DNA of 64,000 nucleotides from contig JBBQZX010000007.1 of assembly GCA_038207335.1 (NCBI GenBank), positions 64,001 to 128,000 of the forward strand, read 5' to 3'. A model generated the notes under the pieces. It was not told the DNA's origin. It worked only from the letters and a program-made list of their open reading frames with translations, and did no database searches. The translations under genes were made by a program, and so were the position numbers. Below, piece after piece: positions 36,819 through 53,316 of this stretch (the first letter of the stretch is position 1; each line of letters starts with the position of its first letter). This DNA comes from Chthoniobacterales bacterium (GTDB lineage: Bacteria; Verrucomicrobiota; Verrucomicrobiia; Chthoniobacterales; Chthoniobacteraceae).

Positions 36819-37703
36819 TTAGTTCGGCGAGCCCGTGGATGTCCGCACGGGCGGAGCATCGGGCGTCGGCGGAGCGGAGACTGCCTTCTCGCCGGAGGGC
36901 GCTGGCTGTGCGGCGCCAGGAGCGGGTGCTGGAACGACAGGCGTGGGGGCGTCGGGGTGCTGGAGTTTCGCGAGTTCCTGATACCACGAGTCCCAGTCAC
37001 TCTGCGGCTCGACGGCCATCGTGGCGCGCATGGCGTAATGACCCGCGCCGCAAAGCTGCGCGCAGACGATCTCGAAATTGCCCGTCTTGATCGGGCGGAA
37101 CCAAACCGGCACACGCGATCCCGGAATCGCATCCTGCGTGATGCGCATGTTGTGCAGCGAAAGACTGTGGATCACGTCCTTTGAGGTAATCTCGATGACA
37201 GTCGGCTTGTAATTGATGAGGTGCAGTTCGTTTTTTGAAACCACGTCGTCCTTGCCTGCAGGGTCGTTCGGATCGAGGCCGAGCGGATTGTTCGCATCCA
37301 CGAGGTGCGCGTTCTGCCGTCCGAAGATGCCGTCAGGGCCGGGGTAGTGAAAATTCCACGCGAATTGCTCGCCGACAGCGTGGACACGCAGAGCCTGCGC
37401 TTTATCGGGGAAGGAATCCTCAGTCACGCGCTTGCCCCACAGCGGGAGGCCGAAGCCGAGCAGCAGCACCGCCTCAACGAGAACGACTGTGAACTCGAGA
37501 TGCGTGGAAACCTTGCTTTTAACACCGTGATAATTGGCGCGCGGATTCCGCGACCGATGGAAACGGTAGATCGTGTAGAGGAAAAAGATGAACCAGCCGA
37601 TGAACAGGAGGAGCATGAACCAATGGCAGAACTCGAGCATGTGATCGATCGAGTAGCCGTGTTCGGAAGCGTCGGGGACGATCCCCATCCATTTGTTGAG
37701 CAT
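36819..37703 (-). CDS. ctaC: Cytochrome c oxidase subunit II (CuA; no fused cytochrome c)
   Basis: Two TM helices; QFAWNFHYPG, DVIHS, CAQLCGAGHYAM; Pro/Ala tail. Confidence 0.95.
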   Translation of the reverse strand: MLNKWMGIVPDASEHGYSIDHMLEFCHWFMLLLFIGWFIFFLYTIYRFHRSRNPRANYHGVKSKVSTHLEFTVVLVEAVLLLGFGLPLWGKRVTEDSFPDKAQALRVHAVGEQFAWNFHYPGPDGIFGRQNAHLVDANNPLGLDPNDPAGKDDVVSKNELHLINYKPTVIEITSKDVIHSLSLHNMRITQDAIPGSRVPVWFRPIKTGNFEIVCAQLCGAGHYAMRATMAVEPQSDWDSWYQELAKLQHPDAPTPVVPAPAPGAAQPAPSGEKAVSAPPTPDAPPVRTSTGSPN

Positions 37704-37709
37704 GTGAGT

Positions 37710-37997
37710 TTAGTCGTTGTCTGCACCGTCGTCCTTGGACGAGTCGTCTGCGATGTCGAATTGCGGAGGCATGGGTGTATTCGCGCGCCTCGCGAGGGTG
37801 ACGCCGAACGCGCAGAGCAGCGCGAGGACTCCACCGATCATTCCCAGCATGAGAAAGATTGAAGCGTTCAGCGCGCCTGCGGCTTTGGAATTTGGGTCGC
37901 CCATGCACACGGCGCAGGCGGAGGCGGAGAGAGGATTGGCGAGCAGCGCGAATGTCAGCGCGACTCCGAGCGATCGGATCGAGGTGAAAGTGCTCAT
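37710..37997 (-). CDS. Small exported membrane protein with a CxxC motif
   Basis: Signal peptide ending ASA, then CAVCMG and one TM helix; ATG at 37997 overlaps the upstream stop. Confidence 0.7.
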   Translation of the reverse strand: MSTFTSIRSLGVALTFALLANPLSASACAVCMGDPNSKAAGALNASIFLMLGMIGGVLALLCAFGVTLARRANTPMPPQFDIADDSSKDDGADND

Positions 37998-38179
37998 GTG
38001 ATGATGTGGCGCGATTTTTTCAGAAACCAGACACCGTAAGCGACGAGACCGACCGCCACCACGACCGATCCTACGCCGAAATAAAGCTCCACTCCATTCA
38101 CAAATGCCCATGCAGCGCACCCTGACGCCAAGAGGATCGCCAGCAGGATGAACAGGATGTGAAAGGCTTTGAGCGACAT
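37994..38179 (-). CDS. Small two-TM protein in the oxidase operon (61 aa)
   Basis: MSLKAFHILFI...; abuts the subunit IV stop and overlaps the next start. Confidence 0.7.
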   Translation of the reverse strand: MSLKAFHILFILLAILLASGCAAWAFVNGVELYFGVGSVVVAVGLVAYGVWFLKKSRHIIT

Positions 38180-38551
38180 TTAGTGAGTGTTGTGCGACGT
38201 GCCGAAAATCGGATCCGTCCAAGCCAGCAACGTCAGCAAAAAGAGACCGCAGACGAAGAATGCGGTGAAGTAGAGGAAGCGAGTGATGGTCGGCTTCTCG
38301 CCTTTCAAGTGCATGAAAATCGCACCGACCAAGCTGACCTTGAACGCAGCAACGAGCAGCGCAATGACGATGTTCCGCGAGCGGGACCCGAAGTCGATGT
38401 AGGACAAAAAGACCGTGAAACCGGTGAGGGCGATGAGCGCCGCGCCGATGCCCCAATAGAGCTTCAGGTGCATGTCGTGGTGCCCATGCTCGTCGGCGTG
38501 TGCGGGTGCGTGATTGGTGGGAGTTACTGCGGGGCTGTGCGAGTCGCTCAT
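38180..38551 (-). CDS. Cytochrome c oxidase subunit IV family protein
   Basis: His-rich N-terminus; LT..TV, IALLVA.FK..LV...FMHLKGE. Confidence 0.88.
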   Translation of the reverse strand: MSDSHSPAVTPTNHAPAHADEHGHHDMHLKLYWGIGAALIALTGFTVFLSYIDFGSRSRNIVIALLVAAFKVSLVGAIFMHLKGEKPTITRFLYFTAFFVCGLFLLTLLAWTDPIFGTSHNTH

Positions 38552-38561
38552 GTCGGTAGGA

Positions 38562-39539
38562 TCAAAGGAGGTAGAAGAGCGGGAAGACGAAAATCCAGAC
38601 GAGATCGACGAAGTGCCAGAAAAGACCGACGACTTCGACACGATTGGCGAGGTGCTCAGGGTTGGTCTTGTAGAGCTTCGCGCCAGGTCCCCAGAAATAA
38701 AGGAATACCAGCACGCCCGCCAAGACGTGCGCACCGTGCAAGCCGGTGATCGTGAAATAGACCGCGAAGTAGGAACTGTGCCGGGGGATGAACATGCTGG
38801 GACTCGAGATTTCCAAGTCTTCCGCGTGGATGACCGCGGTCTTCATCGACAGCTTCTTCGGCCAGAAATGCGGACGTTCGTTGTCTTCACTGGTCGGCTC
38901 GGCGTTCACCTCATCAAGCTGGATCACGTAGTCGGTGGGATCATCCGTGCGGATGATCGGCGCGAGACCTTCTGCCGAGTGTTCACCCTCAGCATGCAGT
39001 TCGTGCTCGAAATGTTCGGCGTTCTTCTCTGCCACCTCTGCGTAGTGGGAACCCTTCGGAGCATCGAGCAGGTGACCAGTGATCTCGTAGCGCGGATCGA
39101 GGTTGTGCTCCTTGAGGAAGGCGTTGCCGAGATAAGGCTCATACTTCTCCAGTGACTCTTTTTTGATGAAGACGCCGAAGTGATTGAACTTCTGCGGATA
39201 CTCATACGCCAGCTTCACCACAAGGAAGAGGATGCCACACAAGATCGTGATGGCCATGTAGAACTTGTATTGCGCGAACTTTCGCATCTTCAGCGCAGCC
39301 CAAGACAACACTACCGTGACCGATGACAGGATGAGCACCGCGGTGTTGAATGTGCCAACTGGAACATTCAGCAAGCCGTGCGGCCAGTATCCCGGTTCAG
39401 CGCCAAGGCGGAGAAAGATGTAGCCCGAGAAAAGCCCGCCGAAGAGCATGACTTCCGATGCCAGAAAGAGCCAGATGCCCAGCTTGGCATTGTAGAGCCC
39501 CGTGTCCGGGCGCGCCGTTACTTCATGTGGAATTTGCAT
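38562..39539 (-). CDS. ctaE: Cytochrome c oxidase subunit III (short form with a large loop insertion)
   Basis: KLGIWLFLASEVMLFGGLF, NT.VLI.SS, YFTITGLHGAHV, GLFWHFVDLVWIFVFP. Confidence 0.93.
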   Translation of the reverse strand: MQIPHEVTARPDTGLYNAKLGIWLFLASEVMLFGGLFSGYIFLRLGAEPGYWPHGLLNVPVGTFNTAVLILSSVTVVLSWAALKMRKFAQYKFYMAITILCGILFLVVKLAYEYPQKFNHFGVFIKKESLEKYEPYLGNAFLKEHNLDPRYEITGHLLDAPKGSHYAEVAEKNAEHFEHELHAEGEHSAEGLAPIIRTDDPTDYVIQLDEVNAEPTSEDNERPHFWPKKLSMKTAVIHAEDLEISSPSMFIPRHSSYFAVYFTITGLHGAHVLAGVLVFLYFWGPGAKLYKTNPEHLANRVEVVGLFWHFVDLVWIFVFPLFYLL

Positions 39540-39542
39540 GTC

Positions 39543-41471
39543 TTAGTGTGCCTGAGCTGGAACCGGAACGGCGGAAGCGACGACTTTGACTCCAACCGGC
39601 TCAGTCTGAGGCGTGAAGTCTTTGTCTGCCCCAGGGACGCTGTATTCGTAAGGACCGCGATAGACGGTGATTTCGGTATCGAAGTTCCCATGTCCGGGAG
39701 GCGACGGCGCATCCCATTCGACGGTCGTCGCATCCCACGGATTCCGGCCGACTTTCTTTCCGTTAAACATGCTCCAGAAGAAATTGAAGATGAACGGGAG
39801 TTGGAACGCGGCGAGGCAGAACGCCGAGGTGCTCATGAATTTATTCCAGTGCAAGACGGGGCCCGCGAACTGATAAGTCAAGTGCTCCAAATCCGCGCCA
39901 CCGCCATCGTACCAGCGGCGATGCACACCCGCCATGCCTTGTAGGAACATGGGGAAGAAGAGGCCATTGATGAAAACCAAGGAACCCCAGAAGTGAATGC
40001 GGCCAAGGAAGTCATTCAACTGGCGACCGGTCGCTTTTGGGAACCAATAATAGACGCCGGCGAAAATAGCGAAAATCGTTCCCGGCGCGACGATGTAATG
40101 GAAGTGCCCGATGATGTAGTAGGTGTCGTGCAGGTAGAGATCGACGGCATTGAAGGCCAGCGGGATGCCCGTAAGACCGCCGATGCCGAACATTGGCATG
40201 AAGGCAGTGGCGAACATCATCGGCATGGTGAATCGGATCGACCCGCCCCACAGCGATAGCATGAGTGCGGTGATCAGGATGACCGATGGGATGGAGATGA
40301 GGATGGTCGTGACTTGGAAGAAGCCCGCGACCGTGGCGCCCATCCCAGTCATATACATGTGATGCGCCCAGACGATGAACGAGAGGAAGGCGAGGACGAA
40401 GATCGCGCCGACCATCGCTTTGTATCCGTAGAGCGGCTTGCGCGTGTTATTTGCCACGACCTCCGCGATTATGCCGATGCCGGGCAGGATGAGGACATAG
40501 ACCTCCGGGTGAGCCAAGAACCAGAACAAGTGCTGCCAGAGCAACGGACTGCCGCCGCCGGACCAGTCGGTGAGCCTTTGCCCCACGATCAAGCCCGTCG
40601 GCATGAAGAAGCTCGTGCCGAAGACGCGATCCATGAACTGGAAGATGCCCGCGGCCTCGAGCGGAGGGAACGCGAGAAGCAGGAGGAAGGCGGTGATGAA
40701 TTGCGCCCAGACGAAGAACGGGAGGCGCATCCAAGTCATGCCCGGCGCGCGTAATTGGATGATGGTCGCGATGAAGTTCACGGAGCCCAGTAGGGAGGCC
40801 GTGATGTTGAAAATCATGCCGGTGAGCCAAAGGGTTTGGCCGTTGAAAAAGTGGTGGTGGCCAATGCCCATGTCCGCGATGCCTGCGAGCGGCGGGTAGG
40901 CCGTCCAGCCCGATTTTGCGGCACCGCCGGGGACGAGGAAACTGACGAGCATGAAGATACAACTGATGAAGAAGCACCAGTAGCTCGCCATGTTGATGCG
41001 CGGAAAGGTCATGTCGGGCGCGCCGATTTGCAGCGGGACGACGAAGTTTCCAAAAGCGGCGAAGGCAATCGGCACGATGCCGAAGAAGACCATGATGGTG
41101 CCGTGCATCGCACCCATCGTGTTGTAGCCGTCGGGCGATAGGACTCCGGCAGGAAATTGGTCGCTGATGGCGCGCAGCCAGAACCAGCCGTCGAATTGCC
41201 CCGCGACGACTGGATGGGTCACGAGGAAGTTTTGCGCAGCGATGAAGGCGTGGCCGATGACTGGCACCGCGGTGCCAGGATGCGCGAGCTGCCACCGCAT
41301 GATGAGCATGAGGCAGAAGCCGAAGAACAGGAACGCGAGGCCGGTCAGGCCATACTGGATGCCGATCGTTTTGTGATCGGTGGAGAAGATGTATTTCCGC
41401 CAATAGCTGAGCTCGTGATGATGGTCGTCGTGATGCGCGGCGTGCGGATCGGCGTGTGTGTGAATTTCCAT
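39543..41471 (-). CDS. ctaD: Cytochrome c oxidase subunit I, A-family (A1 motif)
   Basis: STDHK, MHGTIM, PDMTFPRIN, GWTAYPPL, AHPEVY, WAHHM, HDTYYIIGHFHY, GVHRR. Confidence 0.97.
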   Translation of the reverse strand: MEIHTHADPHAAHHDDHHHELSYWRKYIFSTDHKTIGIQYGLTGLAFLFFGFCLMLIMRWQLAHPGTAVPVIGHAFIAAQNFLVTHPVVAGQFDGWFWLRAISDQFPAGVLSPDGYNTMGAMHGTIMVFFGIVPIAFAAFGNFVVPLQIGAPDMTFPRINMASYWCFFISCIFMLVSFLVPGGAAKSGWTAYPPLAGIADMGIGHHHFFNGQTLWLTGMIFNITASLLGSVNFIATIIQLRAPGMTWMRLPFFVWAQFITAFLLLLAFPPLEAAGIFQFMDRVFGTSFFMPTGLIVGQRLTDWSGGGSPLLWQHLFWFLAHPEVYVLILPGIGIIAEVVANNTRKPLYGYKAMVGAIFVLAFLSFIVWAHHMYMTGMGATVAGFFQVTTILISIPSVILITALMLSLWGGSIRFTMPMMFATAFMPMFGIGGLTGIPLAFNAVDLYLHDTYYIIGHFHYIVAPGTIFAIFAGVYYWFPKATGRQLNDFLGRIHFWGSLVFINGLFFPMFLQGMAGVHRRWYDGGGADLEHLTYQFAGPVLHWNKFMSTSAFCLAAFQLPFIFNFFWSMFNGKKVGRNPWDATTVEWDAPSPPGHGNFDTEITVYRGPYEYSVPGADKDFTPQTEPVGVKVVASAVPVPAQAH

Positions 41472-41566
41472 GCGGCGGTGAGATTTTAAACGGGGCGAGA
41501 CTTTAACGAGCGACTCGCGTTTCGCAATTGACGGGGTGTCTGCGGCCGATCATTCGGGCGGCGCGG

Positions 41567-42040
41567 TTACTTGGCGGCGGGTTCTTCCTTCCACGCCTTC
41601 AACTCAGGCTCCGTCCACGGTGTCTTTCGATCGGTGAATTTCTTGCGCGCGGCGGCCACGACATCAGCGGCGACGGCAGGCGCGATGTTGCCGAAATTGG
41701 AGCGGACGTAGGTCATCACGGCGGCGATTTTCTCGTCGGTGAGCATGGCTTCTTGGCCCGGCATGATGTTGTTGTAGGGCTTGCCTTCGACGGTCATCGG
41801 CCCGGCGTTTCCTTTCAAGATCATGGCTGCCATGCGCTCGGCAGGGCCATTGACGTATTCGGATTTTGTGAGCGGCGGGAATACTGGCGGGAGGCCGAGC
41901 CCGGTCGGCTGGTGGCACGCGAAGCAGACGGTCATGTAAACGGTCTTGCCCATCGCAACTTGCGCGGGCGGAGCGTCTTGTGCGGAGGCGGTGCTTAAGG
42001 TCGCGGCGACGGCGTAGGCGAGAGCGAGTAGGTTTTTCAT
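41567..42040 (-). CDS. Soluble periplasmic monoheme cytochrome c
   Basis: Signal peptide MKNLLALAYAVAATLSTASA; CFACH; NIMPG axial Met. Confidence 0.92.
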   Translation of the reverse strand: MKNLLALAYAVAATLSTASAQDAPPAQVAMGKTVYMTVCFACHQPTGLGLPPVFPPLTKSEYVNGPAERMAAMILKGNAGPMTVEGKPYNNIMPGQEAMLTDEKIAAVMTYVRSNFGNIAPAVAADVVAAARKKFTDRKTPWTEPELKAWKEEPAAK

Positions 42041-42704
42041 GGTGGAAAAGTGGTTACTGTGCGGGCGCTGGGGCGGCGGGTTCGGGCGCGGCAGGCGCGG
42101 GTGCTGGAATAGCGGGTGGCGCTGTCGGAGGAGGCTGCGAGGCAGGAGCCGGTGGCGCAATAGGCGGGGGTGGTGGCTCCGATTGAGCTGGTGCTGGAGC
42201 CCGTGGAACTGGCGCAGGTACGGGCATCGGAGCAAGGGCTGCTTCGGGCGTTGCCACGGCTGGCGGGATGGTTGGCGCTGCGGGAGCGGGTGTCGCTGGT
42301 ACGGCGGCCTCGGGCGCGGGCGCGGCACCGCCGAATGCTTTCAATTCCGGTTCCGTCCACGGCGTCTTGCGGTCGGCAAATTTCGCTCGCGCCGCCGCGA
42401 CGACGGCCGGCGAGACGGGCGGCGCGGAGTTGCCGAAATTAGCGCGGACGTAGGTCATCACCGCGGCAATCTTGTCATCGGTGAGCATCGCCTCCTGACC
42501 GGGCATCACGTTGTTGAAAGGCTTGCCTTCGACGGTCATCGGTCCGGCGTTCCCTTTCAGGATCATCGCCGCGAAACGCTCTTCAGGCCCGTTCGCGTAC
42601 TCGGACTTCACGAGCGGCGGGAAGACCATCGGCAGGCCGAGGCCTGTCGGCTGGTGGCACGCGAAGCAGACAGTCATATAGACCTGCTTGCCTTGCGCCA
42701 ATTG
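41591..42704 (-). repeat. Direct duplication of a cytochrome c domain (41591-41962 and 42333-42704)
   Basis: Two ungapped 124-codon segments; 20 amino-acid differences counted by eye. Confidence 0.9.
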
Positions 42705-43544
42705 CGCTGGGTCGGCAGAAGCGGGCGCGGGCATGGCTGCGGGCATTGGGGCTCCTTGAGCGGGAGTTCCAGCAATCAGGGGCGCGGGAGTCTCCGCTGC
42801 GGCAGCGGCAGGCGCGGGTGTGGCTGGCTTGGCTGCAGGCGCTGCACTCGGCGCGGCGTCGGCTTGTTCGTAGTTCGCATCCGCCGGAATTTGGAGTAGT
42901 TGCGCTTCCGTCCATGAGGCCGTCTGGTTCTCGAATTCCTTCTTCGCCGAGGTGACATCGGCCTCGGTCACTTCGGGCGCGGCATTTCCCCACTCCGAGC
43001 GGATGAAGCTCAAAACTGCAGCGATCTTTTTGTCGCTCAGATTCTTTTCCCACGGCGGCATGACGCCATTGAAAATTTGGCCTTCGACATGCACCGGGCC
43101 TTGTAGGCCTTTGAGCAAAATCGCGATCAGCCGCTTCTCGCCACCGAGCGCAAACTCGGACTTTACGAGCGGCGGAAATTGCCCCGGCACACCGAGCCCG
43201 TTTTGCTGGTGGCACGTCACGCAGTTCGCATAGACCGCCTTGCCCTGCTGCGCGAGCGTCAGCGTCGCGGCAGCTTCGGACTTTCCGCCGGCCTTTGCTG
43301 GCAGCGGAAAGAGCGCGGCAGGCGAACTTTCGTATTCGTTGTAGATATTCGACGAAAAACCCCCGTGGAATACGCCGAGGTAAGCACCCGCCCAAAGGAC
43401 TGCGACGCCGCAGACCGCGGTGAGCCACAGTGGGATCGGCGTGACGTTTGCCTTTGGGTCGCCGTGCTCGCGCTGGATGGCGGCATGCACTTCCGTGACG
43501 TCGTCGGTTTCGCGATAGTCGATGCGTTCAGGACCTTCGTTCAT
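42054..43544 (-). CDS. Membrane-anchored diheme cytochrome c (CcoP-like)
   Basis: N-terminal E..DP...TPIPLWL + TM; CVTCH and CFACH, each with a downstream MP; Pro/Ala linkers. Confidence 0.88.
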   Translation of the reverse strand: MNEGPERIDYRETDDVTEVHAAIQREHGDPKANVTPIPLWLTAVCGVAVLWAGAYLGVFHGGFSSNIYNEYESSPAALFPLPAKAGGKSEAAATLTLAQQGKAVYANCVTCHQQNGLGVPGQFPPLVKSEFALGGEKRLIAILLKGLQGPVHVEGQIFNGVMPPWEKNLSDKKIAAVLSFIRSEWGNAAPEVTEADVTSAKKEFENQTASWTEAQLLQIPADANYEQADAAPSAAPAAKPATPAPAAAAAETPAPLIAGTPAQGAPMPAAMPAPASADPAQLAQGKQVYMTVCFACHQPTGLGLPMVFPPLVKSEYANGPEERFAAMILKGNAGPMTVEGKPFNNVMPGQEAMLTDDKIAAVMTYVRANFGNSAPPVSPAVVAAARAKFADRKTPWTEPELKAFGGAAPAPEAAVPATPAPAAPTIPPAVATPEAALAPMPVPAPVPRAPAPAQSEPPPPPIAPPAPASQPPPTAPPAIPAPAPAAPEPAAPAPAQ

Positions 43545-43560
43545 TCTCGGAAATCTTTGG

Positions 43561-44214
43561 TTACTTCGCCGGCGCCAGCGCGCCTTTGACTTCCTTCAAG
43601 GGATGGGTGGAATCGAGCGAAAGGAGGTAAGCGACGAGCTGGCGGGCCTCGGCTTTTGGCACGATCTCGTACCCATCTTTCGTCGCGACATTCAAGGCAT
43701 CGACCGACCGCTGGCCGCTGATCTTCCGCGTCTCGAAAAGGTATCGGTAGGGCGGCATGTTCGACTCATGCACGATCACGGTGGGCTGATAGAGATGGAG
43801 GTAATGCCATGCGGCATCTCGGCGCGCAGGTTTGCGCGGGTCGTTGATGTCTTCGTTGCGCCACTCTTTCGTCCCAACATCGGTCAGGTCCGGGCCGAGC
43901 CGCATGTTACCGAGAAATGTGGGATTTTTATAAATGTAGTCCCGTGCGACGGTGCGCCGAGCTCCCCACCCGCGCTCGATGTCGAGGCCGTTTTGCGGGT
44001 CGCGAATTTGCTGCGAATGGCAGTAGAAGCAACCTTCGGAGGCATAGACCTCGCGGCCTTTGCGGGGATTGTAAACGGGATATACATCGCCCGCGTCTTC
44101 ATCGACCTGCGGCTGGAGCCCGCCCAACTGCACCTGCGGCACGAGCACGAGCGCAAAGCAGGAGATCGCGAACGATCCGAAGATTCCGGCGAAGAGATAG
44201 GATGAGCGGCTCAT
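43561..44214 (-). CDS. ccoO: cbb3-type oxidase subunit II-like monoheme cytochrome
   Basis: GREVYASEGCFYCHSQQIR, RLGPDL..VG, WHYLHLYQP, SNMPPY. Confidence 0.9.
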   Translation of the reverse strand: MSRSSYLFAGIFGSFAISCFALVLVPQVQLGGLQPQVDEDAGDVYPVYNPRKGREVYASEGCFYCHSQQIRDPQNGLDIERGWGARRTVARDYIYKNPTFLGNMRLGPDLTDVGTKEWRNEDINDPRKPARRDAAWHYLHLYQPTVIVHESNMPPYRYLFETRKISGQRSVDALNVATKDGYEIVPKAEARQLVAYLLSLDSTHPLKEVKGALAPAK

Positions 44215-45708
44215 TTAATGTTTCTCCTCTCCAGGGACCGCGAAGAGTGTCGGCGCGCCGCCCGGTTGTCCGATCCGCAGCAGCATGAGCAGGAAGTGGA
44301 GCGCGAAGATGATGTGCGCGATGGCTACAAAGCCAATCGCGAGTGTGTGACCGGCGAGATAGACTTGGCCGATGCCGATGACTTGGGTGAAGGTCGCCTC
44401 CGGATCGATCATCGCAAGGCCGGCGGCGAGACCGGAGAAGGCAAGCATGGCGATGAGGACTCCGCCGCCGTAAGCCGCTCCCCAGAAGTGGAGCTTGATG
44501 AGTGTGGAGGAAAGCCACTCGCAGCCGACGAGACGCGGCGTGATGTAATAGATCGCGCCGAACATGATCATCGAGAAGAACGCGTAGATGACCAGTTGAT
44601 GCTGCGCGGCTTGGAACTGCGTGAAGTGGACGATGCTATCGACGCTTCGGAGCGAGGTGAGGATTCCCACGACACTGGCGACCGCAAAAGCCACGGTGCC
44701 AAAGTAGGTGAAGCGGATGGTGGGAGAGTAATAGACCATCTGCGTGTGGCCGCGCATCGTGAAGATGAGGTTGGTCGTCACGGTTGCGATGGGCACGAGC
44801 ATCATGAGGCTCGCCGCGATGCTCACGGTCGCGAGCCATGCGGGGATCGGGCCACCGCTGAGACGCACCATCGCGGTGAGTCCGCCGAAAAGTGCAAATG
44901 TCCAGAAGCCGATAGTCGCGAGGTTGTAGCTGTAGATCGGCGTGTTGACGACTTTCGGAATGAGGTAGTAGGCCGCGGCCAGACCGATGGCGGTGAACCA
45001 CAGGACGAGGATACTTTGCGAATACCACGCGGCGACGACGCTCTGCATGACTCCTTGGAGCTGTGGCAAGCCGTTTAGGAGCTGCGCGACGCCGAAGAGC
45101 CACGGGAACCAGAAGAAGGCGCCGAGCAGATACCAGACAGAAATATAGACGGGCGATTTGCGGCGGAAGCGGTAAAGGATCGCGCCCCACAGACCGACGA
45201 GGACGTATCCTAGGAACATGATCGCCGCCGCGGCACGGGGGATCTCCATGCCTTCGATGCCGGAGGTTTTACCAGCGAGGATGCAGAGGATGCCGATGAC
45301 TAGGCCGAGATTCCAAAGCAACGCGCCGAAAACGAGAAAGCCAGGGTAGCGGATGGAGACGCGACAGAGTCGCGACATGAGCCAGATGCCGACGCCCATT
45401 CCAGCGAGGCTGGCCCAGCCGTAGGTCAGGGTGAGATTGTAAGCCGGGGCGATGCGGCCGTACGTGAGCCACGAGCAATCGGCGAGGAAGCCGGGGTGGT
45501 GGAGCTTCACCGAGGTGATGAAGCCGAACACGGTGGAGAGGAGGAGCCAGCCGATCGCGGTGGTGAAGAAGAGCAGCACCGGGCCCGCTGCGGCGGCGTC
45601 GATCGTCGCGCGTTCTATGGATACTTTGGCCTTCGCCGCTTGGGCGGGCACGGCCTCGATCGCGACGGCCGTTGTCGGTTTGATTTCTGGAGCGGCGACG
45701 GCGGTCAT
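44215..45708 (-). CDS. CcoN (cbb3 subunit I) homologue lacking the heme/CuB histidines
   Basis: About 12 TM; YGRI.P, E..E loop, YISVWY, YY.IPK...PIYSY, HFT, IYYITPRL, HFW match CcoN, but the ligand positions read Y, Q, VR and QxQ. Confidence 0.85.
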   Translation of the reverse strand: MTAVAAPEIKPTTAVAIEAVPAQAAKAKVSIERATIDAAAAGPVLLFFTTAIGWLLLSTVFGFITSVKLHHPGFLADCSWLTYGRIAPAYNLTLTYGWASLAGMGVGIWLMSRLCRVSIRYPGFLVFGALLWNLGLVIGILCILAGKTSGIEGMEIPRAAAAIMFLGYVLVGLWGAILYRFRRKSPVYISVWYLLGAFFWFPWLFGVAQLLNGLPQLQGVMQSVVAAWYSQSILVLWFTAIGLAAAYYLIPKVVNTPIYSYNLATIGFWTFALFGGLTAMVRLSGGPIPAWLATVSIAASLMMLVPIATVTTNLIFTMRGHTQMVYYSPTIRFTYFGTVAFAVASVVGILTSLRSVDSIVHFTQFQAAQHQLVIYAFFSMIMFGAIYYITPRLVGCEWLSSTLIKLHFWGAAYGGGVLIAMLAFSGLAAGLAMIDPEATFTQVIGIGQVYLAGHTLAIGFVAIAHIIFALHFLLMLLRIGQPGGAPTLFAVPGEEKH

Positions 45709-46199
45709 TTTTTGGTCTCGATGGGAGCGGGAAGAGCGGCGGGCGCGGCAGCGGCGGCAGGTGACGGGGCAGTCTCAAAGCGAATGGTATCCGCGCCTTG
45801 CGGGGATGACGGGAGCGCGGGTGGCGCGGGCTCTTTGGCGTCGGGGTCGTAGGGCGCAGGCATCGGGAGCGCGGGCTCGACTTTGACTTGGGAAGCCGCG
45901 GGTTTCTTGGAGTTCAGTTCGGCAAGCACGAGCTTGCGGGCATCGGCGAGCGGGATGTGCGCGACTCCTTTCGCCTTGTCCACCCAGCCAACGGTGCCGA
46001 GGCGTTCGTCGTCGGCTTTTTGAAGCGCTTCGCGCTTCTCGATGCGAGCGGCGGCACGATTGTCTTCGACCTGGCCGAGAGGGGCGCCGTTTCTCGCCCA
46101 GATACAGACTACGAGGGCGAAGATAATGAAGAAGAAGATCGCCCAAACGAAGGTCAGGAAACCGCTGGGCTTGGCATGAGGTGTTTCTTCGATCGTCAT
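45705..46199 (-). CDS. Single-TM accessory subunit, ActG-like
   Basis: Follows actF; one TM helix; GWVDKAKGVAHIPLADA motif; Pro-rich tail. Confidence 0.6.
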   Translation of the reverse strand: MTIEETPHAKPSGFLTFVWAIFFFIIFALVVCIWARNGAPLGQVEDNRAAARIEKREALQKADDERLGTVGWVDKAKGVAHIPLADARKLVLAELNSKKPAASQVKVEPALPMPAPYDPDAKEPAPPALPSSPQGADTIRFETAPSPAAAAAPAALPAPIETKK

Positions 46200-46200
46200 G

Positions 46201-47403
46201 TCAGTTGGTCAGTTTGATAGACGCTGCGAGCCGCGGGTCGCGGGTGGGGAAGAGATAGGTCGCCCCGAGGTTTTTGAAAAACAGCCACACGAGGATCGCG
46301 CCGATTCCAACGAGCGGGAGCAGGTCGAAAACGCTGGGTGATGCGCCTGTCGAGTGCAGCGCGGGGAGGACGACGACGTAGATGTCGATCATGTGGATGA
46401 AGAGAATCCAGCCGGCGACCATGCAGAGGTAGCGCGGCTTTTTCTTTGTCCACTGAAGTAGCAAAACTGGGAAAGGCAGGAAGAATCGTCCGACTACGAG
46501 CAGGGTGCTAAAATACCACCAGCTGTTGGTGTTGCGAATCTGGAAGTAGATCGTCTCTTCCGGGATATTCGCATACCAGATGAGCATGTACTGGCTGAAG
46601 CCGATGTAGGCCCAAAAAATGGTGAAGGTGAGCATGAACTTGCCCATGATGTGGTAGTGCTCGAGCGTGACCACGTTCAGATGCCCGCGAATCTTTAGCC
46701 AAGTGATGATGAGCACGAGCAGGGACATGGAGCTGCCCGCTGCACCGGCGAAGAGATAGACACCCCACATGGTCGAGAACCAGTGGTAGTTCAGGCTCAT
46801 CAACCAATCGACTCCAGAGAATGTGATGCCGAGAGCTACAGCGAAAATGCCCGCGACTCCCAACTTCCGCATCGCAAAACTATGCCTCGCCGCTCCATCT
46901 TTGTCTTGGAGAGTAGAGTGGCGCTTGAGTCCGAATGCGATGCCTCCGAGAGCAAGGAAATAAACGGCGGCGCGGATAAGGAAGAACGGCTTCGAGAGGT
47001 ACGGCTGCTTGGCGTCCAGTAACGGATCGATGCCCGGGCTAAGGTTCCACCATTTAAACAGGATGCCAGCGCAGAGCAGGATCGGGATGAAGAACAGGAC
47101 GAAGTACGGGATAAGGCTCGCGACGTTTTCCAACTGTCGCCGGACGACGACCGACCACTCCGCATCGGTGGCGTGATGGAGGCAAATCCAGAAAAGCGTC
47201 CCAACGCAAATCGTGAAGAAGTAGGTGAAGGCGAAGAGCCATGAGAACGCGAACTGCGGACGCCAGCCGGGGACGATGAGACCAATGAAGCTCAACAGGA
47301 TCGCGACCGCGCCGACGCCGAGCAAGATAGTCGGCAGGCCACCGAGTTTCTTGATATCGAACTTCTCGGCTACGGGAACAGGAGTGTCGTGTGAGTCGCT
47401 CAT
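46201..47403 (-). CDS. actF: Alternative complex III subunit F
   Basis: About 10 TM; A.WSVVVRR..E, DWLMSL..HWFSTMWG, FSQYMLIWYANIPEET. Confidence 0.92.
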   Translation of the reverse strand: MSDSHDTPVPVAEKFDIKKLGGLPTILLGVGAVAILLSFIGLIVPGWRPQFAFSWLFAFTYFFTICVGTLFWICLHHATDAEWSVVVRRQLENVASLIPYFVLFFIPILLCAGILFKWWNLSPGIDPLLDAKQPYLSKPFFLIRAAVYFLALGGIAFGLKRHSTLQDKDGAARHSFAMRKLGVAGIFAVALGITFSGVDWLMSLNYHWFSTMWGVYLFAGAAGSSMSLLVLIITWLKIRGHLNVVTLEHYHIMGKFMLTFTIFWAYIGFSQYMLIWYANIPEETIYFQIRNTNSWWYFSTLLVVGRFFLPFPVLLLQWTKKKPRYLCMVAGWILFIHMIDIYVVVLPALHSTGASPSVFDLLPLVGIGAILVWLFFKNLGATYLFPTRDPRLAASIKLTN

Positions 47404-48089
47404 TGCTTCTTTTCCTGCTGCAATTCTTTCTGCTGCGCCTCGGATAGATCGGCGAGCTTCGCATTTTGGCTGCGCTGGAGCGTGCGCAGGTAGCTCACGA
47501 TGGCCCAGCGATCTTCCACCGCGATCTGCGGACCGTAGGCACCCATCGTGTTCTTGCCGTTGGTGATCGTGCTAAAAATCTGACCGTCGGGCATCGTGCG
47601 GATTCGCTCGTCTTGCAGGTTTGCCACCGTGGCCCAGTTGCCGATTTGCTGGACGATTCCGTTGCCCATGGCGGTGTGGCCGTGGCAGACGGCGCAGTTG
47701 ATGTCGAAGCGCTGCTGGCCTCGCTGTATCAGCTTGTCGGTGACTTCGAGCGGGAAACCGTCGCCATAGACGTCGCCGAACTTGCCGGTGTTGTAATAGT
47801 CGGGCTGGTTGCTGAATCCCTCCTGCGCGAGCGTTCCGTTCTTTGCTCCGGCTTGAAGGTATCGGCCCGGCAGGCTGTAGCCGATCGGCACCGTTCCGGC
47901 GACGGGTTTGCGCTCGGCACTGCCGTCAGCGAAGAAGCCGCTCGTGTGCTGTGGCTGATACTTTGGCTGACGATCCATGTCCGGGAAAATCTCGAGCGGA
48001 GGCAGCTCGCTCTTTGCGCCGCGGAAGCCGGCGAGGGCGATCACCGCGCAGGTTATTAAGAGAAATGAGGCGAAGAAATAACGAAGCAT
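47400..48089 (-). CDS. actE: Alternative complex III monoheme subunit E
   Basis: PDMDRQPKYQPQ..S.FFADG, PV.GTVP, RG...F.INCAVCHG, MGAYG, DRWAIVSY. Confidence 0.92.
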   Translation of the reverse strand: MLRYFFASFLLITCAVIALAGFRGAKSELPPLEIFPDMDRQPKYQPQHTSGFFADGSAERKPVAGTVPIGYSLPGRYLQAGAKNGTLAQEGFSNQPDYYNTGKFGDVYGDGFPLEVTDKLIQRGQQRFDINCAVCHGHTAMGNGIVQQIGNWATVANLQDERIRTMPDGQIFSTITNGKNTMGAYGPQIAVEDRWAIVSYLRTLQRSQNAKLADLSEAQQKELQQEKKQ

Positions 48090-48102
48090 GTGGCCTTAGT
48101 TT

Positions 48103-48648
48103 CTAGTCGTGGATGAGGGTCACGTGCTTGCCGCCGATGCCTTCGAGAAGCTCGCGAGTCTTGGACTCCGAGAACTTCGGATCACGGGCTTCGATGACGA
48201 CGAAGAAGCCATCGTCGGTCGCGCGCTTGAAGCGCTCCCAGTTAAAGACCGGATGATACCACTTCGGCAGTTGGTTCATGATGAGCAGCGCGAAGACTGT
48301 GGCGAATGCCGAGCAAAGGATCGTGAGCTCGAAGAAGATCGGGAAAAAGGCGGGGACCGTGCGCCAATCGAACGGCTTGCCATGCACGATGAGCGGGTAA
48401 ATTCCCCACGAAGGAATGAAGGTGAGGCAAACTGCGGTGAGCAGACCGGTGATTCCGCCGCAAAGGACCGCAGCGGAAAGCCATGACTTGCCGAGACCCA
48501 TCGCGCTGTCCATGCCATGCACGGGAAATGGGGAGTGGACATCCCAGCGTTTGAAGCCGGCGTCGCGCACTTTTTCAGCGGCGATCATGAGGTCGGCGGC
48601 TGTGTCGAACTCCGCGCCCAATCCATATACTTTACGGTATTCAGCCAT
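48103..48648 (-). CDS. actD: Alternative complex III subunit D (DUF3341)
   Basis: AEFD, DVHSPFPVHGMD.AMG, GKP, PIFFELTIL, ATDDGF. Confidence 0.92.
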   Translation of the reverse strand: MAEYRKVYGLGAEFDTAADLMIAAEKVRDAGFKRWDVHSPFPVHGMDSAMGLGKSWLSAAVLCGGITGLLTAVCLTFIPSWGIYPLIVHGKPFDWRTVPAFFPIFFELTILCSAFATVFALLIMNQLPKWYHPVFNWERFKRATDDGFFVVIEARDPKFSESKTRELLEGIGGKHVTLIHD

Positions 48649-48658
48649 GTCGTTTGAC

Positions 48659-50107
48659 TTAGGAATGGTGAGCGTTTGTGCCGACGCCGGAACCGGGCTT
48701 GCGTTGATGCGGGTCAGCTTCTGGAGTGACGATTTTAACCTCGGACATCGCGATCATCGGGAGGAAGCGCATGAAGAGTAGGAAGAGAGTCAAAAAGATG
48801 CCGAAGGTGCCGACGAAGGTCCAAATTTCGACCCATGAAGGCGAGTAGTGCCGCCACGAGGACGGCAGGAAATCCTGAGCCAGCGAGGTTACGATGATGA
48901 CGAATCGCTCGAACCACATGCCAGTATTGACGAACATGCAGACGATGAAGACGACGATGTAGTTCGACCGTGCCCATTTCAGCCAGAAAATCTGCGGCGA
49001 AAGGACGTTGCATGTCATCATGCAATAGTAGGCCCATGAGTACCAGCCGGAGTTGTTGATGCCGATGCGTGCATGGAAGAAGGTAAACATCTCGAACTTG
49101 TTCGCGCTATACCACGCGATGAAGAGTTCCATCAGATACGCGTATCCGACGATGCTGCCTGTCAGCAGGATGATCTTCGCCATTTTATCGACATGCTGAC
49201 GGGTCAGGAGATCGTCGAGCTGCGGATAAAGAAGCCTGGCCGGAAGCAGGATGGTGAGCACCATTGCGAAGCCGCCGAAGATTGCGCCCGCGACGAAGTA
49301 AGGCGGGAAGATGGTGGTGTGCCAGCCGGGTAGGATGGATGTGGCAAAGTCGAAGGAGACGACGGAATGCACGGAGAGCACGAGCGGAGTGCTGATGCCG
49401 GCCAGGATGAGATAGGCCATCTCGTAGTGGCGCCATTGGCGGTTCGAGCCGCGCCAGCCCAAGGCGAAGATGCCGTAGAGGTAGCGGGAGACGCGGTTTT
49501 TCGCGCGGTCGCGCAAGGTCGCGAGATCGGGGACGAGGCCGGTATACCAGAAGAGGACGGAGACGGTGAAGTAGGTCGAGACTGCAAAGACGTCCCAGAG
49601 CAGCGGAGAGCGGAAGTTTGGCCAGATGGCGTTGCCGTTCGGAACGGGTGCCAGAAACCACGCCATCCAAACACGACCGACGTGGATGCCGGGGAAGATG
49701 CCGGCGCAGACGACGGCGAAGAGCGTCATGGCCTCGGAGGCGCGGTTGATGGAGGTGCGCCACTTTTGCCGGGTCAGGAAAAGCACGGCGGAAATGAGCG
49801 TGCCGGCGTGGCCGATGCCGATCCAGAAGACGAAGTTCGTGATGTCCCACGCCCAGCCGACGGTCTTGTTTTCCCCCCACATACCGACGCCGTTGGAGAT
49901 TTGCAGGCCGATACAGAAGAGGCCGAAGAGCGCAACCGGGGTCGTGATCAGCATCGCGAGCCACCACCAGAGCGGGGTGCGCGATTCGACGATGCTCGAG
50001 ACATTGTCTGAAATCCACGAGAGCGAGCGGTCGTTCTGCACCAACGGAACTTTGACGAGTTCCGGCTGAGTCGTGAGGGAAACTGTGGGGGCGTCGGCTT
50101 CAGTCAT
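48659..50107 (-). CDS. actC: Alternative complex III subunit C (NrfD/PsrC family)
   Basis: [66 protein letters not shown]. Confidence 0.95.
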
Positions 50108-53100
50108 TACGCTTCACCTCCGGGATGTTCGGCTTTGCCTTCATGGCTCTCGTGATGGTGTTCTCGCGAATAGGCTCCGACCTTCTCCGCACCCGGCATT
50201 TTCATGTTGGGGTTGCGGATACGGGCCAGATACCAGACGCGGGTGCCGACGTTGAGATACTCGAGGAGCCGGTAGCCGCGCTCAGTGGCGCGCACTTTCG
50301 AGACGCTGCTGTCGGGGTTCGCGATATCGCCAAAGGTGATCGCATCTGTCGGACAGGCTTGCGCGCAGGCTACTGTGAAGGCATCGGCGGGGATGCGGAT
50401 GTTATCGGAATCGCGCGCGGCGACCTTTGCAGCGATTTTAGCTTCCTGGATTCGTTGCACGCAAAAGGTGCATTTTTCCATGACTCCGCGCATCCGGACG
50501 GTGACGTTCGGGTTCTTCTGAAGCTTGATGGAATCCTCGGTGCCTTTCGGCGCGGTGAGGTTCCATTTATAAAGGCCGCGGTCTTCGATGTTGCGCTGGT
50601 TGTAGTCGAAGAAGTTGAAGCGGCGGACTTTGAATGGACAGTTGTTCGCGCAGTATCGGGTGCCGATGCAGCGGTTGTAGGCCATCACGTTTAGTCCGTC
50701 GTCGCTGTGAACGGTGGCGTTGACGGGGCATACGGTTTCGCACGGCGCATTCTCGCAGTGCTGGCAGAGCATGGGCTGATAGACCATCTCAGGATCGGCG
50801 GTCTCGTCGCCGACTCCCGCAAAGTAACGATCGGTGCGAATCCAGTGCATCTCGCGGCCGTTGTGGACCTGCTCTTTGCCGACGATCGGAATGTTGTTCT
50901 CCGACTGGCAGGCGACCATGCAGGCGGAGCATCCGGTGCAGGACGAAAGGTCCACGGTCATTCCCCACTGGTGCTGGTTCGTGAGCGGCGGGTGGGAATA
51001 GAGAGAGCTGGTAACAACCTCGGTTTTCTTGCCGTTGACGACTTTCCACTCGGCCTCGGCATCCATGCCGAGCGTCTTTGCGAATTCAGGGTTCTCCTTG
51101 TATTGCTCGATCGTCCCTTCACGGACGAGGTCAGGGCCACGGCCTTCGAGCGTGCCGTGCTCCTGCGTGACTGCGAGAAGGTAGGTGTCGCCGGTTTTCG
51201 CAACTTTCGCGCCGACGATGAAATAAGGCTGTGCGGTGCTGCGGAGGCGGTAGGCATTGAAGCCGGGGCTCTTGCCTGTTGCGTCTTTTCCGCCGACGCG
51301 ACCGGAGACTTCGCGGCCGTATCCGAGTGCGATCGAGAGTGAATTGTCGGCGTGCCCGGGCGCGATAAAAACGGGGATTTTCAGCGAACGCTCCTGCACG
51401 GTGATGTCGATCACGTCGCCGGTTTCGACGCCGAGCTTTGCGGCACTGGCGGGGCTGATGAGAGCGGCGTTGTCCCATGTGACCTTGGTGATCGGATCGG
51501 GGATTTCCTGGAGCCAGCCGTTGTTGGCGAAGCGTCCGTCATCGACTGTGTAGTCGGCAGTGAGGACGATCTCGAAGCTGTTTTCGTCGAGAGCGGGAGC
51601 GGAAAAATTGTCCTTCGCGGATGTCGTGGAGTCGGCGGAAATCGCGAGCGGCTCGGGCTTTGCAGCGCTGTGGGCGAGGAAGCCGTCGTGGAGGAATTTT
51701 GCCCACGCGACGGTGAAATCGGCGGGGCTGGCGGCTTGGCGGAAAGTTTCTTGGATGAGCTCGGGGCCGGTGGTTTTTGCGTGGCCGGCGAATTTTGCGA
51801 GGATGTCCAGCTCCGACCAGCCGTCGTAGAGCGGCAGGATCATCGGCTGGATGGAAAGGTGGCTGCCGTCGGTGGCGTAGGCGTCGCCCCACGACTCGAG
51901 ATAGGTCGCGATCGGCACCTGCCAGGTGGCGAGTTCGGAGGTTTCGTCTTCGTGCAGGCCGACGCGGACAATCGTGCCTTTTTTCTCGTCGCGGAGGGTC
52001 TTGAGGACTTTCGCGAATTCGAGGTCGGACGGCGCGTTGTAGATCGGATTGCCGCCGATGATGATGATCGCGCGGGTCGTGCCGTCGCCGATCGATTTGG
52101 TGAGTTCGCCGATGCTGGCGGCGGGCTTCGCGCCGCGGCGACCGGTGAGCGTTTTGTCGAGGTTGCCGAGCGCGGAGTTGATCGACGCGACGATCGCGTG
52201 GACTCCGGCGGGCTGGCGCGAACCGACGACGACGAGGCTTTTGCCTTTGTTTGCGAGAAGATCGGCGGCGGATTCTTTCACCCACTCCGCGGAGATTTTC
52301 GCGGTCGCGGGCGGGAGCGTTTTTACCAGCGCGAGGAGCGCGGAGTCGCTGGATTTCGCGCCGATTTCCTGCGCGAGGGCGAGGGCGAAGGCACCGATTT
52401 GGCTCGCGGGCATCCGCAGACGGTGGTCGGCCATGCCGCCGGTGACGGTGTAGCGATTTTCGACCGCGTAGAGGCGGTTCATCTTGCCGCCAGCGTCGGG
52501 CTTGCGGCGCGCGGTGAATTGCCGCGTGATGTCGATGGTCGATTCCGTGCCGAGGAAATCGCAGTCGAGCGCCATGATGACGTCGGCTTTTCCCATCTGC
52601 GGAATCGCGGAGATGCCTGCTCCGAAGCTGCCCTCCGGGCCGCCGAGCGGCTCATAAACGGCCCACATCGCCTTTGGAAATTTCTCCTCGATCTCGCCGC
52701 GCAGTCGCTCGCGAGTCGGCCCGTGAATTTCTTCCAAAAGGAACGCGATGCCCGCGCCGTCGGCGGCGTTTTTGATCAGCTCGTCGAGTTCTTTTTCAAA
52801 GGTCGCGACGTCGGACTTTTTGCCGTTTTTGAGGAAATGCTGTGAGCGATCCGGGTCGTAGAAATCGAGGATTGAGGCCTGGGCGAAGATGTCTGTCGCG
52901 CCTTTGCTGGCGGGGTGCAGCGGGTTGCCCTCAATTTTCGTGGGGCGTCCGTCGTGAGTCGTGACGACGAGCGGGATCGCGCCGTTGCGGGTCGGGTAGG
53001 CGCTGGAGAAAAATAGGGCCTTGCCGGGAATCGACCACTCGACGCCGCGCGTGAACGGGACGAGTTGCATTTCCGGCCGGCGGCAGCCGGCGAAGCTGAG

Positions 53101-53304
53101 GCCGGCGAGCGCCATCGACGCGCCCATGAGCTGGAGGAAATTGCGACGGGAAACTTCGCCGCCGCCGAACTCTGACGCACCTTGCGGGAACTCGCGCTCG
53201 AGCCAGCCGCGGAATTCCGGGGTGCCGGAGAGCTGGCCGAGGCTGCGCCAGTATTTCTTGCCAGTGGCGGCCTCGGGCGGGTGATTGAAAACGCGTTTGC
53301 TCAT
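50107..53304 (-). CDS. actB: Alternative complex III subunit B (molybdopterin-oxidoreductase-like + Fe-S domains)
   Basis: YWRSL leader; Tat SRRNFLQL with FAGC lipobox; [51 protein letters not shown]...CAQACP. Confidence 0.95.
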
Positions 53305-53316
53305 CGAAAAATTTCG

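Follow-up and report, generated by a model that had tools for sequence, protein, structure and literature searches.

A CcoN homologue without metal ligands in the alternative complex III operon of Verrucomicrobia, a candidate membrane scaffold for c-type cytochromes

Introduction

Membership of the heme-copper superfamily rests on metal ligands. In CcoN of the Pseudomonas stutzeri cbb3 oxidase, we take H60 and H347 to bind low-spin heme b, H345 to bind heme b3, and H207, H257 and H258 to bind CuB, while T215, Y223, S240 and Y317 presumably line the K-type proton channel. Alternative complex III (ACIII) itself contains non-catalytic copies, namely ActF and the N-terminal part of ActB. In the ACIII-aa3 supercomplex of Flavobacterium johnsoniae, the link between the two enzymes is reportedly made by an extra heme domain of ActA. 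A passage of PMC8498564 describes electron transfer in that supercomplex without an extra soluble cytochrome, and another notes a "C-type oxidase with ACIII" for Verrucomicrobia. Sections of three papers credit verrucomicrobial methanotrophs with a cbb3 oxidase, which one of them ties to high O2 affinity (PMC6688271, PMC8498564, PMC10205796).

Here we describe an ACIII operon that ends in a CcoN homologue without these ligands, hereafter CcoN*. A literature search, with most subscription papers outside its scope, found no account of a CcoN lacking its ligands next to ACIII, and such a protein is apparently not yet in print.

Results

Gene organization of the locus

In the window, that is, the whole 64,000-nt stretch analysed, the locus comprises the following genes.

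33519..36764, minus strand: ctaA, ctaB, sco and DUF420 assembly genes
36819..41471, minus strand: coxA, coxC, coxD, two small ORFs and coxB, encoding an A-type oxidase
41567..42040, minus strand: monoheme cytochrome c of 157 aa with a signal-peptide-like start
42054..43544, minus strand: CcoP-like tethered cytochrome c with one membrane helix and two heme domains joined by Pro/Ala linkers
43561..44214, minus strand: ccoO, membrane-anchored monoheme cytochrome c with CxxCH and Met153; Asn103 at the position of the Ca ligand Ser102
44215..45708, minus strand: ccoN*, a 497-aa, 12-helix CcoN homologue without metal ligands, from alignment and predicted model
45705..46199, minus strand: actG-like gene, overlapping the ccoN* start, with a profile match to ActG
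46201..53991, minus strand: actA (5 hemes), actB, actC, actD, actE and actF, encoding ACIII

The ccoN* frame is uninterrupted, its start shares 4 nt (ATGA) with the upstream gene, and its stop abuts ccoO without a gap (TAA-ATG), as the preliminary description had stated for frame and coupling. The upstream gene had no match in a single-sequence search of the PDB, but a profile built from 83 homologues matched ActG (8k9e_G, E 4.4e-5). ActF was named from its position and its likeness to the second ACIII operon of the genome, having no Pfam match, and CcoO matched PF02433 at 77.8 bits. A complex prediction for ActF, ActG and CcoN* made with alignments scored 0.01 against a mark of 0.32 and was given no weight for or against an association. 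A scan of 41300-46400 returned no promoter site, and terminator-like matches there were at chance level.

Whole-genome tblastn gave no other ccoN in the window, and among the other window genes scanned CoxA alone matched a CcoN profile, weakly; the claim that no intact ccoN occurs there is therefore upheld. The same search located an intact ccoNO fusion with ccoP on another contig (C45), answering the question whether an intact copy exists elsewhere in the genome. A second ACIII operon, on contig C1, has a caa3 oxidase alongside and no ccoN.

CcoN* keeps the fold and lacks every metal ligand

Ligand sites were mapped with HMMER, using as references solved CcoN and the intact CcoN encoded elsewhere in this genome. 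The results showed that the low-spin heme b pair H60/H347 is replaced by Y90/Q371, the heme b3 ligand H345 by Q369, and the CuB ligands H207, H257 and H258 by Q231, V281 and R282. The cross-linked Y251 of helix VII corresponds to G275. The replacement of all six His and the Tyr, previously read by eye from motif pairs, is thus confirmed; the pairs themselves were correct, with H370, the single His of its helix, one position off the ligand site. In the NO reductase NorB (cNOR), these six His positions bind two hemes and a non-heme Fe, and CcoN* has no His at any of them. With all metal ligands missing, CcoN* would have no possible function as an O2 reductase, as had been proposed.

The polar K-type channel is incomplete: T239 and Y247 are kept, and the Ser and the second Tyr are replaced by A264 and F341. 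Both glutamates of the ExxE loop are retained (E152 and E155, equivalent to E122 and E125). The Ca ligands of cbb3 are given in a section of PMC10256718 as CcoN E122 and CcoO S102; here E152 is present, and the CcoO partner position is Asn rather than Ser.

The retained CcoN framework was borne out by the predicted fold (pLDDT 90), which superimposed on 3mk7_A with TM 0.85/0.90 and an rmsd of 2.5 A. Within the heme-copper oxidase fold, the model was nearest to the C family, with NOR structures ranked lower, and ESM Atlas matches fell only in COX1/cbb3 clusters. CcoN* matched PF00115 at 149 bits and TIGR00780 at 106.3 bits, against a cut-off of 583.15 below which intact subfamily members, unscored, may fall too.

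Ligand loss is probably repeated and CcoN* is under selection

The actABCDEFG-ccoN-ccoO-cytc operon is widespread in the class, and the expected synteny with act genes across relatives was found, actF and ccoO flanking the gene in 90/96 loci. Among the 96 sampled genomes, 51 copies had all six His and 44, here called dead, had 0-2, including 15 with no His at any ligand site. A scan of named records, biased to intact copies by its patterns, was left out of these frequencies. Residues of the proton channel and of the Ca and heme contacts eroded alongside the ligands: T239, S264, Y341, R87 and E152 occurred in 51/51 intact copies each and in 7, 3, 22, 9 and 15 of the 44 dead ones, so that the ExxE loop is kept in CcoN* and E152 in only a minority of dead copies. 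Searches found 829 CcoN* homologues; in the best 120, none had more than two of the six His, and neither H90 nor Tyr275 occurred (0/120 each). The two closest relatives among the homologues listed have His at both 369 and 371. For ten divergent representatives, names were obtained for five clusters and taxa (Verrucomicrobia, Opitutales) for two.

An AU test rejected a single clade of dead copies (p 0.00026), and a mixture-model CcoN tree of a subset had four changes forced by starred branches. We preferred these to a FastTree CcoN tree, which warned of long branches meeting and gave only four changes, including one (G363) that amounts to a single substituted His. The ActC tree, a quick tree rather than the careful search, needed nine changes, five forced. 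From these phylogenies we infer that ligand loss arose at least four times in Verrucomicrobia.

CcoN* is under purifying selection. Its dN/dS against nine relatives was 0.068-0.268 (one pair saturated), similar to the values of ActF and CcoO for these pairs; comparisons between dead copies within four families gave 0.07-0.41, and dS was near saturation in most pairs. Simple decay, for which dN/dS near 1 had been named as the sign, was not borne out by these values far below 1, and a pseudogene is refuted by them for the lineages tested.

The tethered cytochrome is retained more strictly than CcoO

CcoO, the diheme and the monoheme cytochrome had been described as keeping CxxCH and axial Met, and all three do so here: CcoO has one such site, the 496-aa tethered cytochrome one in each of its two domains, and the 157-aa cytochrome (start 42040) one. 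The last is a duplicate of the second heme domain of the tethered cytochrome (83% aa; 78% DNA over 300 nt). The tethered cytochrome has one domain in most relatives and two in this genus, and the layout with the extra monoheme cytochrome was shared by 6/7 relatives compared.

In dead operons, CcoO kept CxxCH in 43/43 and lacked the axial Met in 10/43, and its Ca-ligand position was Thr or Ser in about 11/43, compared with Thr in 98% of 51 intact operons. The tethered cytochrome kept both CxxCH and axial Met in 39/39 dead operons, with a relaxed charged N-terminal motif. Since its Met is kept throughout and that of CcoO is lost in some operons, these results point to the tethered cytochrome, rather than a CcoO wire, as the probable working carrier. 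Fusion to CcoO was seen in two dead copies (P0207, P0267), both single-member clusters on short contigs.

Partner oxidases

CoxB in the window has the CuA motif and no CxxCH, and ActA has five CxxCH. Both had been offered as support for a heme relay from ACIII to CuA, and neither discriminates: ActA is a five-heme protein whatever the state of CcoN in its operon, and CoxB adjoining the operon has no fused cytochrome c beside either an intact or a dead CcoN (9/9 sampled-genome and 14/14 named loci). The best CoxB was unlinked and carried a fused cytochrome c in 15/18 dead genomes tested. From this pattern, the CcoN*-cytochrome module follows ACIII, not the aa3 genes. An A-type CoxA match was found in 44/44 dead genomes; the eight gene-bearing genomes without one all had intact CcoN, and 5/8 came from one genus. 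Because intact CcoN also lies beside aa3 genes in many genomes, an A-type oxidase would permit ligand loss and not force it.

Methylacidiphilum fumariolicum SolV and annotation

In SolV, the gene annotated CcoN has 1/6 ligand His and is a dead copy, and the draft genome gave no other CcoN match. According to supplement 4 of PMC10205796, transcription was 36-47 TPM for ccoN*, 40-123 for act and 264-628 for cox genes, placing ccoN* at the level of the ACIII genes. Public databases label such proteins "cbb3-type subunit I", and canonical CcoN above cut-off was present in only 21/42 dead-gene genomes; marker-gene counts for microaerobic respiration in these bacteria are therefore likely inflated. 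Scoring CcoN* as a high-affinity oxidase would mislead, and physiology inferred from genomes in which dead CcoN was counted as cbb3 needs correcting. SolV is in culture, so the question is directly testable.

Discussion

Judged from sequence comparisons, CcoN* is probably a non-catalytic membrane scaffold that holds CcoO and the tethered cytochrome c, through which electrons would leave ACIII. A heme-less scaffold for c-type cytochromes had been suggested in the preliminary description and is still the best reading, minus the two arguments from ActA and subunit II. An ancestral verrucomicrobial operon may have combined ACIII with a divergent, functional cbb3 oxidase, whose oxygen chemistry, once an A-type oxidase was available, would have been dropped several times independently, apparently starting with the CuB ligands and ending with heme b, and the proton path presumably closed by non-polar residues. 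ccoN*, ccoO and the cytochrome would have been kept because ACIII still needs cytochromes positioned by CcoN*. Electrons would run from quinol through ActC/ActB/ActA/ActE to the CcoP-like tethered cytochrome, perhaps extended in this genus by its second domain and soluble copy, and end at CuA of the A-type oxidase or at other periplasmic acceptors; part of the role of CcoO is likely structural. It is odd, however, that cytochromes carrying their own anchors should need a 12-helix holder, and in the clade of CcoN* itself (best 120 of 829 homologues) E152 is still present in 106/120 and R85 and H361 in 120/120. A wider version, in which the ACIII of Verrucomicrobia has gained three cbb3-derived extra subunits and the oxidase core has turned, separately in many lineages, into a pseudoenzyme docking a cytochrome c arm between ACIII and the A-type oxidase, all in one supercomplex, is possible but tentative. 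Present-day copies at different stages (without CuB ligands, with heme b alone, without any ligand) would record the steps of such a history.

A fixed wire, with ACIII, CcoN*-CcoO-cytochrome c and aa3 in one supercomplex and electrons passing via CcoO and the diheme cytochrome to CuA, fits the position of the cox genes directly after the operon in Methylacidiphilum and this family, the adjacent CoxB that never has a fused cytochrome c, the heme domains gained in this genus just upstream of coxA, and the caa3 oxidase at the ccoN-less second ACIII operon; we nevertheless think it unlikely, given the unlinked cytochrome-bearing CoxB of most dead genomes tested, the missing CcoO Met and the SolV cox transcripts several-fold above act/cco. 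Slightly less likely still is structural entrenchment, with CcoN*, CcoO and the cytochrome serving only ACIII assembly or stability and the hemes lying off the productive path: the strict linkage to actF, the relaxed CcoO Met and Ca-ligand positions and the conserved CcoN* residues, mainly Gly, Pro and aromatics, would suit it, but the tethered cytochrome keeps its heme sites in every dead operon and was duplicated in this genus. A single heme could also have stayed in the low-spin site as redox relay or sensor, held by two His in some lineages and by Tyr and His in this clade. Both heme b His are kept in 5/10 copies of one family (f3), E152, R85 and H361 are conserved in the clade of CcoN*, and Y90 co-occurs with H371 in 63/90 against 2/30 of the best 120 of 829 homologues, about 5:0 in independent pairs (median p 0.06); with His or Gln counted at 371, Y90 showed no coupling (median p 0.6). 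Together with His369/His371 in the two closest relatives, the co-occurrence of Y90 and H371 makes a residual heme conceivable in relatives. Yet CcoN* has Gln371, R87 has given way to hydrophobic residues in the clade, copies without any ligand His exist, and a Tyr-His hydrogen bond over an empty pocket could explain the coupling equally well, so that we regard this as improbable.

The CoxA of the window keeps its His ligands. It has Leu for the K-channel Lys (P. denitrificans K354), and Y247 survives in 42/44 dead copies, which would favour a role of CcoN* in conducting protons or other ions, for instance for that oxidase. Other channel positions have become non-polar (S264 to Ala in 39/44), however, the charged N-terminal motif of the cytochrome relaxes, and CoxA without the Lys also lies beside intact CcoN (G174, L179), with the reverse pairing, Lys present and CcoN dead, in G216, making a conduit very improbable. 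Least credible is a decaying pseudogene or assembly peculiarity. Dead copies do sit on longer branches than intact ones, matches of a few relatives (G396, G403, G357, G426) contain stops or split frames, and a spare intact ccoNO exists in the genome; against these stand the low dN/dS, the 829 homologues, the full length with tight gene coupling and the transcribed SolV copy.

The favoured scaffold reading predicts unseen ACIII subunits, and a ligand-free heme-copper member under selection, its ligands apparently lost at least four times, offers a natural experiment in turning a respiratory enzyme into a structural part.

Comparison with known systems

With the C-family cbb3 oxidases (P. stutzeri 3mk7/5djq, P. 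aeruginosa 8smr), CcoN* shares the 12-helix fold (predicted TM 0.90), the ccoN-ccoO-cytochrome c order, the CcoO heme motif, the RxGPDL loop and the E122/E125 equivalents. It differs in lacking the heme b, heme b3 and CuB ligands and the cross-linked Tyr, in the replaced polar channel residues and CcoO Ser102 of its operon, and in sitting at the end of an ACIII operon. The intact ACIII-linked cbb3 subfamily of Verrucomicrobia is its direct orthologue, with the same operon and 39-49% identity, but has the six His, the Tyr and the T/Y/S/G/Y channel set in 51/51 copies, whereas CcoN* has no ligand. Named records of this subfamily come from Opitutaceae and Chthoniobacterales. As in the F. johnsoniae supercomplex, the ACIII genes lie beside those of an A-type oxidase; here a cbb3-derived module lies between them instead of an extra heme domain on the five-heme ActA. 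As regards ACIII membership, ccoN* lies in the act operon at 90/96 loci and is transcribed in SolV at act level. A parallel is offered by the N-terminal region of ActB and by ActF, enzyme-derived folds kept as structural subunits, but these are ancient core subunits, whereas the loss in ACIII-operon CcoN is recent, repeated and limited to part of one class.

The ACIII-ccoN* locus

The genes of the locus are arranged as follows:

upstream of ccoN*, minus strand: actA-actF of alternative complex III (ACIII), then an actG-like gene
44215-45708, minus strand: ccoN*, the 497-aa CcoN homologue
after ccoN*, minus strand, in this order: ccoO, a two-heme tethered cytochrome (CcoP-like, one membrane helix), a one-heme cytochrome
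after the one-heme cytochrome, minus strand: A-type oxidase and its assembly genes

Throughout the stretch that starts with actF and ends with the one-heme cytochrome, neighbouring genes overlap or sit at most 16 nt apart, and 95 nt separate the one-heme cytochrome gene from coxA. At 41567-43544, a cytochrome domain is duplicated at genus level: the tethered protein has two such domains, and a further copy with a signal-peptide-like start is encoded separately; the copies share 78% DNA identity over 300 nt and have long Pro/Ala linkers. In the A-type CoxA (39543-41471) every His ligand is present, as are HPEVY and the D-channel Asp, but Leu replaces the K-channel Lys (ISIPSVILIT). This Leu recurs in CoxA of three genomes (G174, G123, G081), family f13 and loci L119, L120 and L179; other linked CoxA have the Lys. 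Two small membrane ORFs lie between coxD and coxB (37710-38179), one with a CxxC motif and found at the same place in relatives including Methylacidiphilum fumariolicum SolV. A 1108-aa protein (30092-33418; labelled by eye) has a zinc-metalloprotease-like HExxH motif (HETGHALGLQH), after which come numerous repeats rich in Gly and Asn.

Loss of metal ligands within a predicted CcoN fold

Alignment to solved CcoN chains placed Y90, Q231, V281, R282, Q369 and Q371 of ccoN* at the six ligand His and G275 at the cross-linked Tyr, and the source genome's own intact CcoN gave an identical ligand-site mapping. The AlphaFold model (pLDDT 90) matched the solved P. stutzeri CcoN (3mk7_A) with TM-scores of 0.85/0.90 and an rmsd of 2.5 Å. 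Both alignments and the predicted fold thus bear out the preliminary description of a kept CcoN framework with every metal ligand replaced, and none of the six positions holds His. ccoN* is a CcoN descendant that lacks the defining features of an oxidase.

An intact ccoN does exist elsewhere in the genome: contig C45 (L001) carries it fused to ccoO, with ccoP and further genes following the usual cbb3 order. Genes labelled by eye as grpE-like and dnaJ-like lie beside them. A second ACIII operon on contig C1 has a caa3 oxidase alongside and no ccoN; this locus (L002, G000:C1:272000-291999) is complete and continues into sco and the caa3 oxidase, with HPAVY for HPEVY.

Distribution, repeated loss and selection

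A protein search found 829 relatives of ccoN* among 8000 scored candidates; in the best 120 of the 829, the six sites held no His in 43, one in 61 and two in 16. Matches occurred in 93/301 genomes of the phylum and 109/121 of the order. We tabulated 96 ACIII-type copies, a non-random sample of most class-level matches plus the best 30 of the 109 order matches (other cbb3 subfamilies, found in five genomes and as three second copies, were excluded, as was the C45 gene). All six His were present in 51 (intact), zero to two in 44 (dead) and five in one. Of the 150 top representatives at 50% identity, 130 had no gaps at the ligand sites and 126 of these were not intact, a proportion skewed to dead because such clustering favours fast-evolving dead copies. 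Intermediate types had lost the CuB ligands and kept both heme sites (loci L164 and L172, cluster P0121), or kept the heme b pair alone (5/10 copies in family f3). At position 231, the site of the first CuB His, two copies that are otherwise intact (L109 in genome G363; L171) have Arg instead, which may mark an early stage of the loss. In a different class of the phylum, another intact CcoN subfamily follows a seven-heme cytochrome (L055, L056).

Synteny with the act genes held: actF and ccoO shared a locus with the gene in 90/96, most exceptions being loci that end or are cut near it. ACIII is the constant neighbour of the ccoN module. The five hemes of ActA and a subunit II without fused cytochrome c had been cited as fitting a scaffold relay; neither sets such a relay apart, since both features occur with intact and dead copies alike. 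Operon-adjacent CoxB lacked the cytochrome domain, intact or dead, at 9/9 loci of our set and 14/14 named loci (the sets may overlap), and in 30 genomes searched the best CoxB match had a fused cytochrome in 15/18 dead and 12/12 intact. A-type CoxA was matched in 44/44 dead genomes; the eight genomes with the gene and no CoxA match were all intact, five of them from one genus.

After removal of the active-site columns, a tree inferred under a mixture model from 23 selected rows needed five intact/dead changes, four of them forced by branches with strong support; a single dead clade was rejected by the AU test (p 0.00026). FastTree on 104 rows needed four changes (three forced), and nine (five forced) were required on the ActC tree, which had 49 rows. 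Because all outgroups are intact, the changes are read as losses, and intact-to-dead loss occurred more than once.

Nei-Gojobori dN/dS of ccoN* against nine relatives was 0.068-0.268 (one pair saturated), near the values that the same pairs gave for ActF and CcoO. Dead-dead pairs within families (>=60% identical) gave 0.07-0.41 (one saturated), and intact pairs with dS <1.5 gave 0.02-0.24. With dS about 1 or above in most pairs the values are rough, yet all are far from 1, so ccoN* represents a conserved family and no decaying gene. Simple decay has next to no chance of being the explanation.

Relaxation of the heme path and the probable role of CcoN*

Channel and heme-contact positions that are invariant in the 51 intact copies were kept in few to most of the 44 dead copies (T239, 7; S264, 3; Y341, 22; Y275, 1; R87, 9; E152, 15; E155, 33), and the Gly, Pro and aromatic framework residues were retained. 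Dead-operon CcoO kept CxxCH in 43/43 and the axial Met in 33/43. PMC10256718 describes Ca bound between the two b hemes by CcoN E122 and CcoO Ser102; the Ser102 position is Thr in 98% of intact operons and Thr or Ser in about 11/43 dead ones. The tethered cytochrome kept CxxCH and Met in 39/39 dead operons, while its N-terminal charged motif relaxes. As CcoN contacts, the CcoO Ca-ligand position and the charged motif all relax, the path into the CcoN hemes decays from either side; the outer cytochrome, its motifs kept in 39/39, remains redox-competent as far as sequence shows. Two dead ccoN copies are fused to CcoO. In five copies (L049, L095-L098) the CcoO axial Met is Cys, which would alter heme potential, and at L047, L049 and L256 a heme-bearing cytochrome-like ORF occupies the actG position upstream of dead ccoN.

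We consider it fairly probable that CcoN* is a sealed, metal-free scaffold. It would anchor both CcoO and the tethered cytochrome to ACIII; from that cytochrome electrons would go on to the A-type oxidase or another acceptor. In the source genus the second heme domain and the soluble copy would lengthen this arm. What we say of binding, heme content and the electron path is inference. A fixed supercomplex wire is unlikely, and a purely structural role somewhat more so. Residual heme in CcoN* is quite improbable. Two observations speak against a complete absence of heme: Y90 is paired with H371 in the clade of ccoN* (63/90 vs 2/30, best 120 of 829 relatives; about 5:0 in independent pairs, with a median p of 0.06), and His occupies positions 369 and 371 in the two relatives nearest to ccoN*. 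ccoN* itself has Gln at both. An ion conduit is very improbable. In our search of the literature, mainly open-access papers, we found no description of a ligand-less CcoN beside ACIII.

The cultured case of Methylacidiphilum

This operon is also present in the named records of SolV (L120) and of Methylacidiphilum sp. Yel (L119), where the six sites read S/E/S/H/F/V; in these drafts, whose completeness is not given, no CcoN match appeared beyond the operon gene and two A-type subunits. Two papers count a cbb3 type among three oxidases (PMC8498564, PMC10205796); in a third, the ACIII-adjacent genes of strain Kam1 are called a cbb3 oxidase and tied to high O2 affinity (PMC6688271). For IT6, 'cbb3' transcripts are reported to stay the same in oxic and anoxic growth (preprint 10.1101/2024.01.15.574570). 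By eye, SolV protein MFUM_v2_0384, called CcoN in PMC10205796 supplement 4, does not differ from the translated L120 gene. If the two styles of tag in this supplement are treated as equivalent, TPM in the two reactors was 36 and 47 for ccoN*, 40-123 for act genes, 49-96 for ccoO and the cytochrome, and 264-628 for coxA/C/D/B. These values place expression of the SolV gene called CcoN within the ACIII unit.
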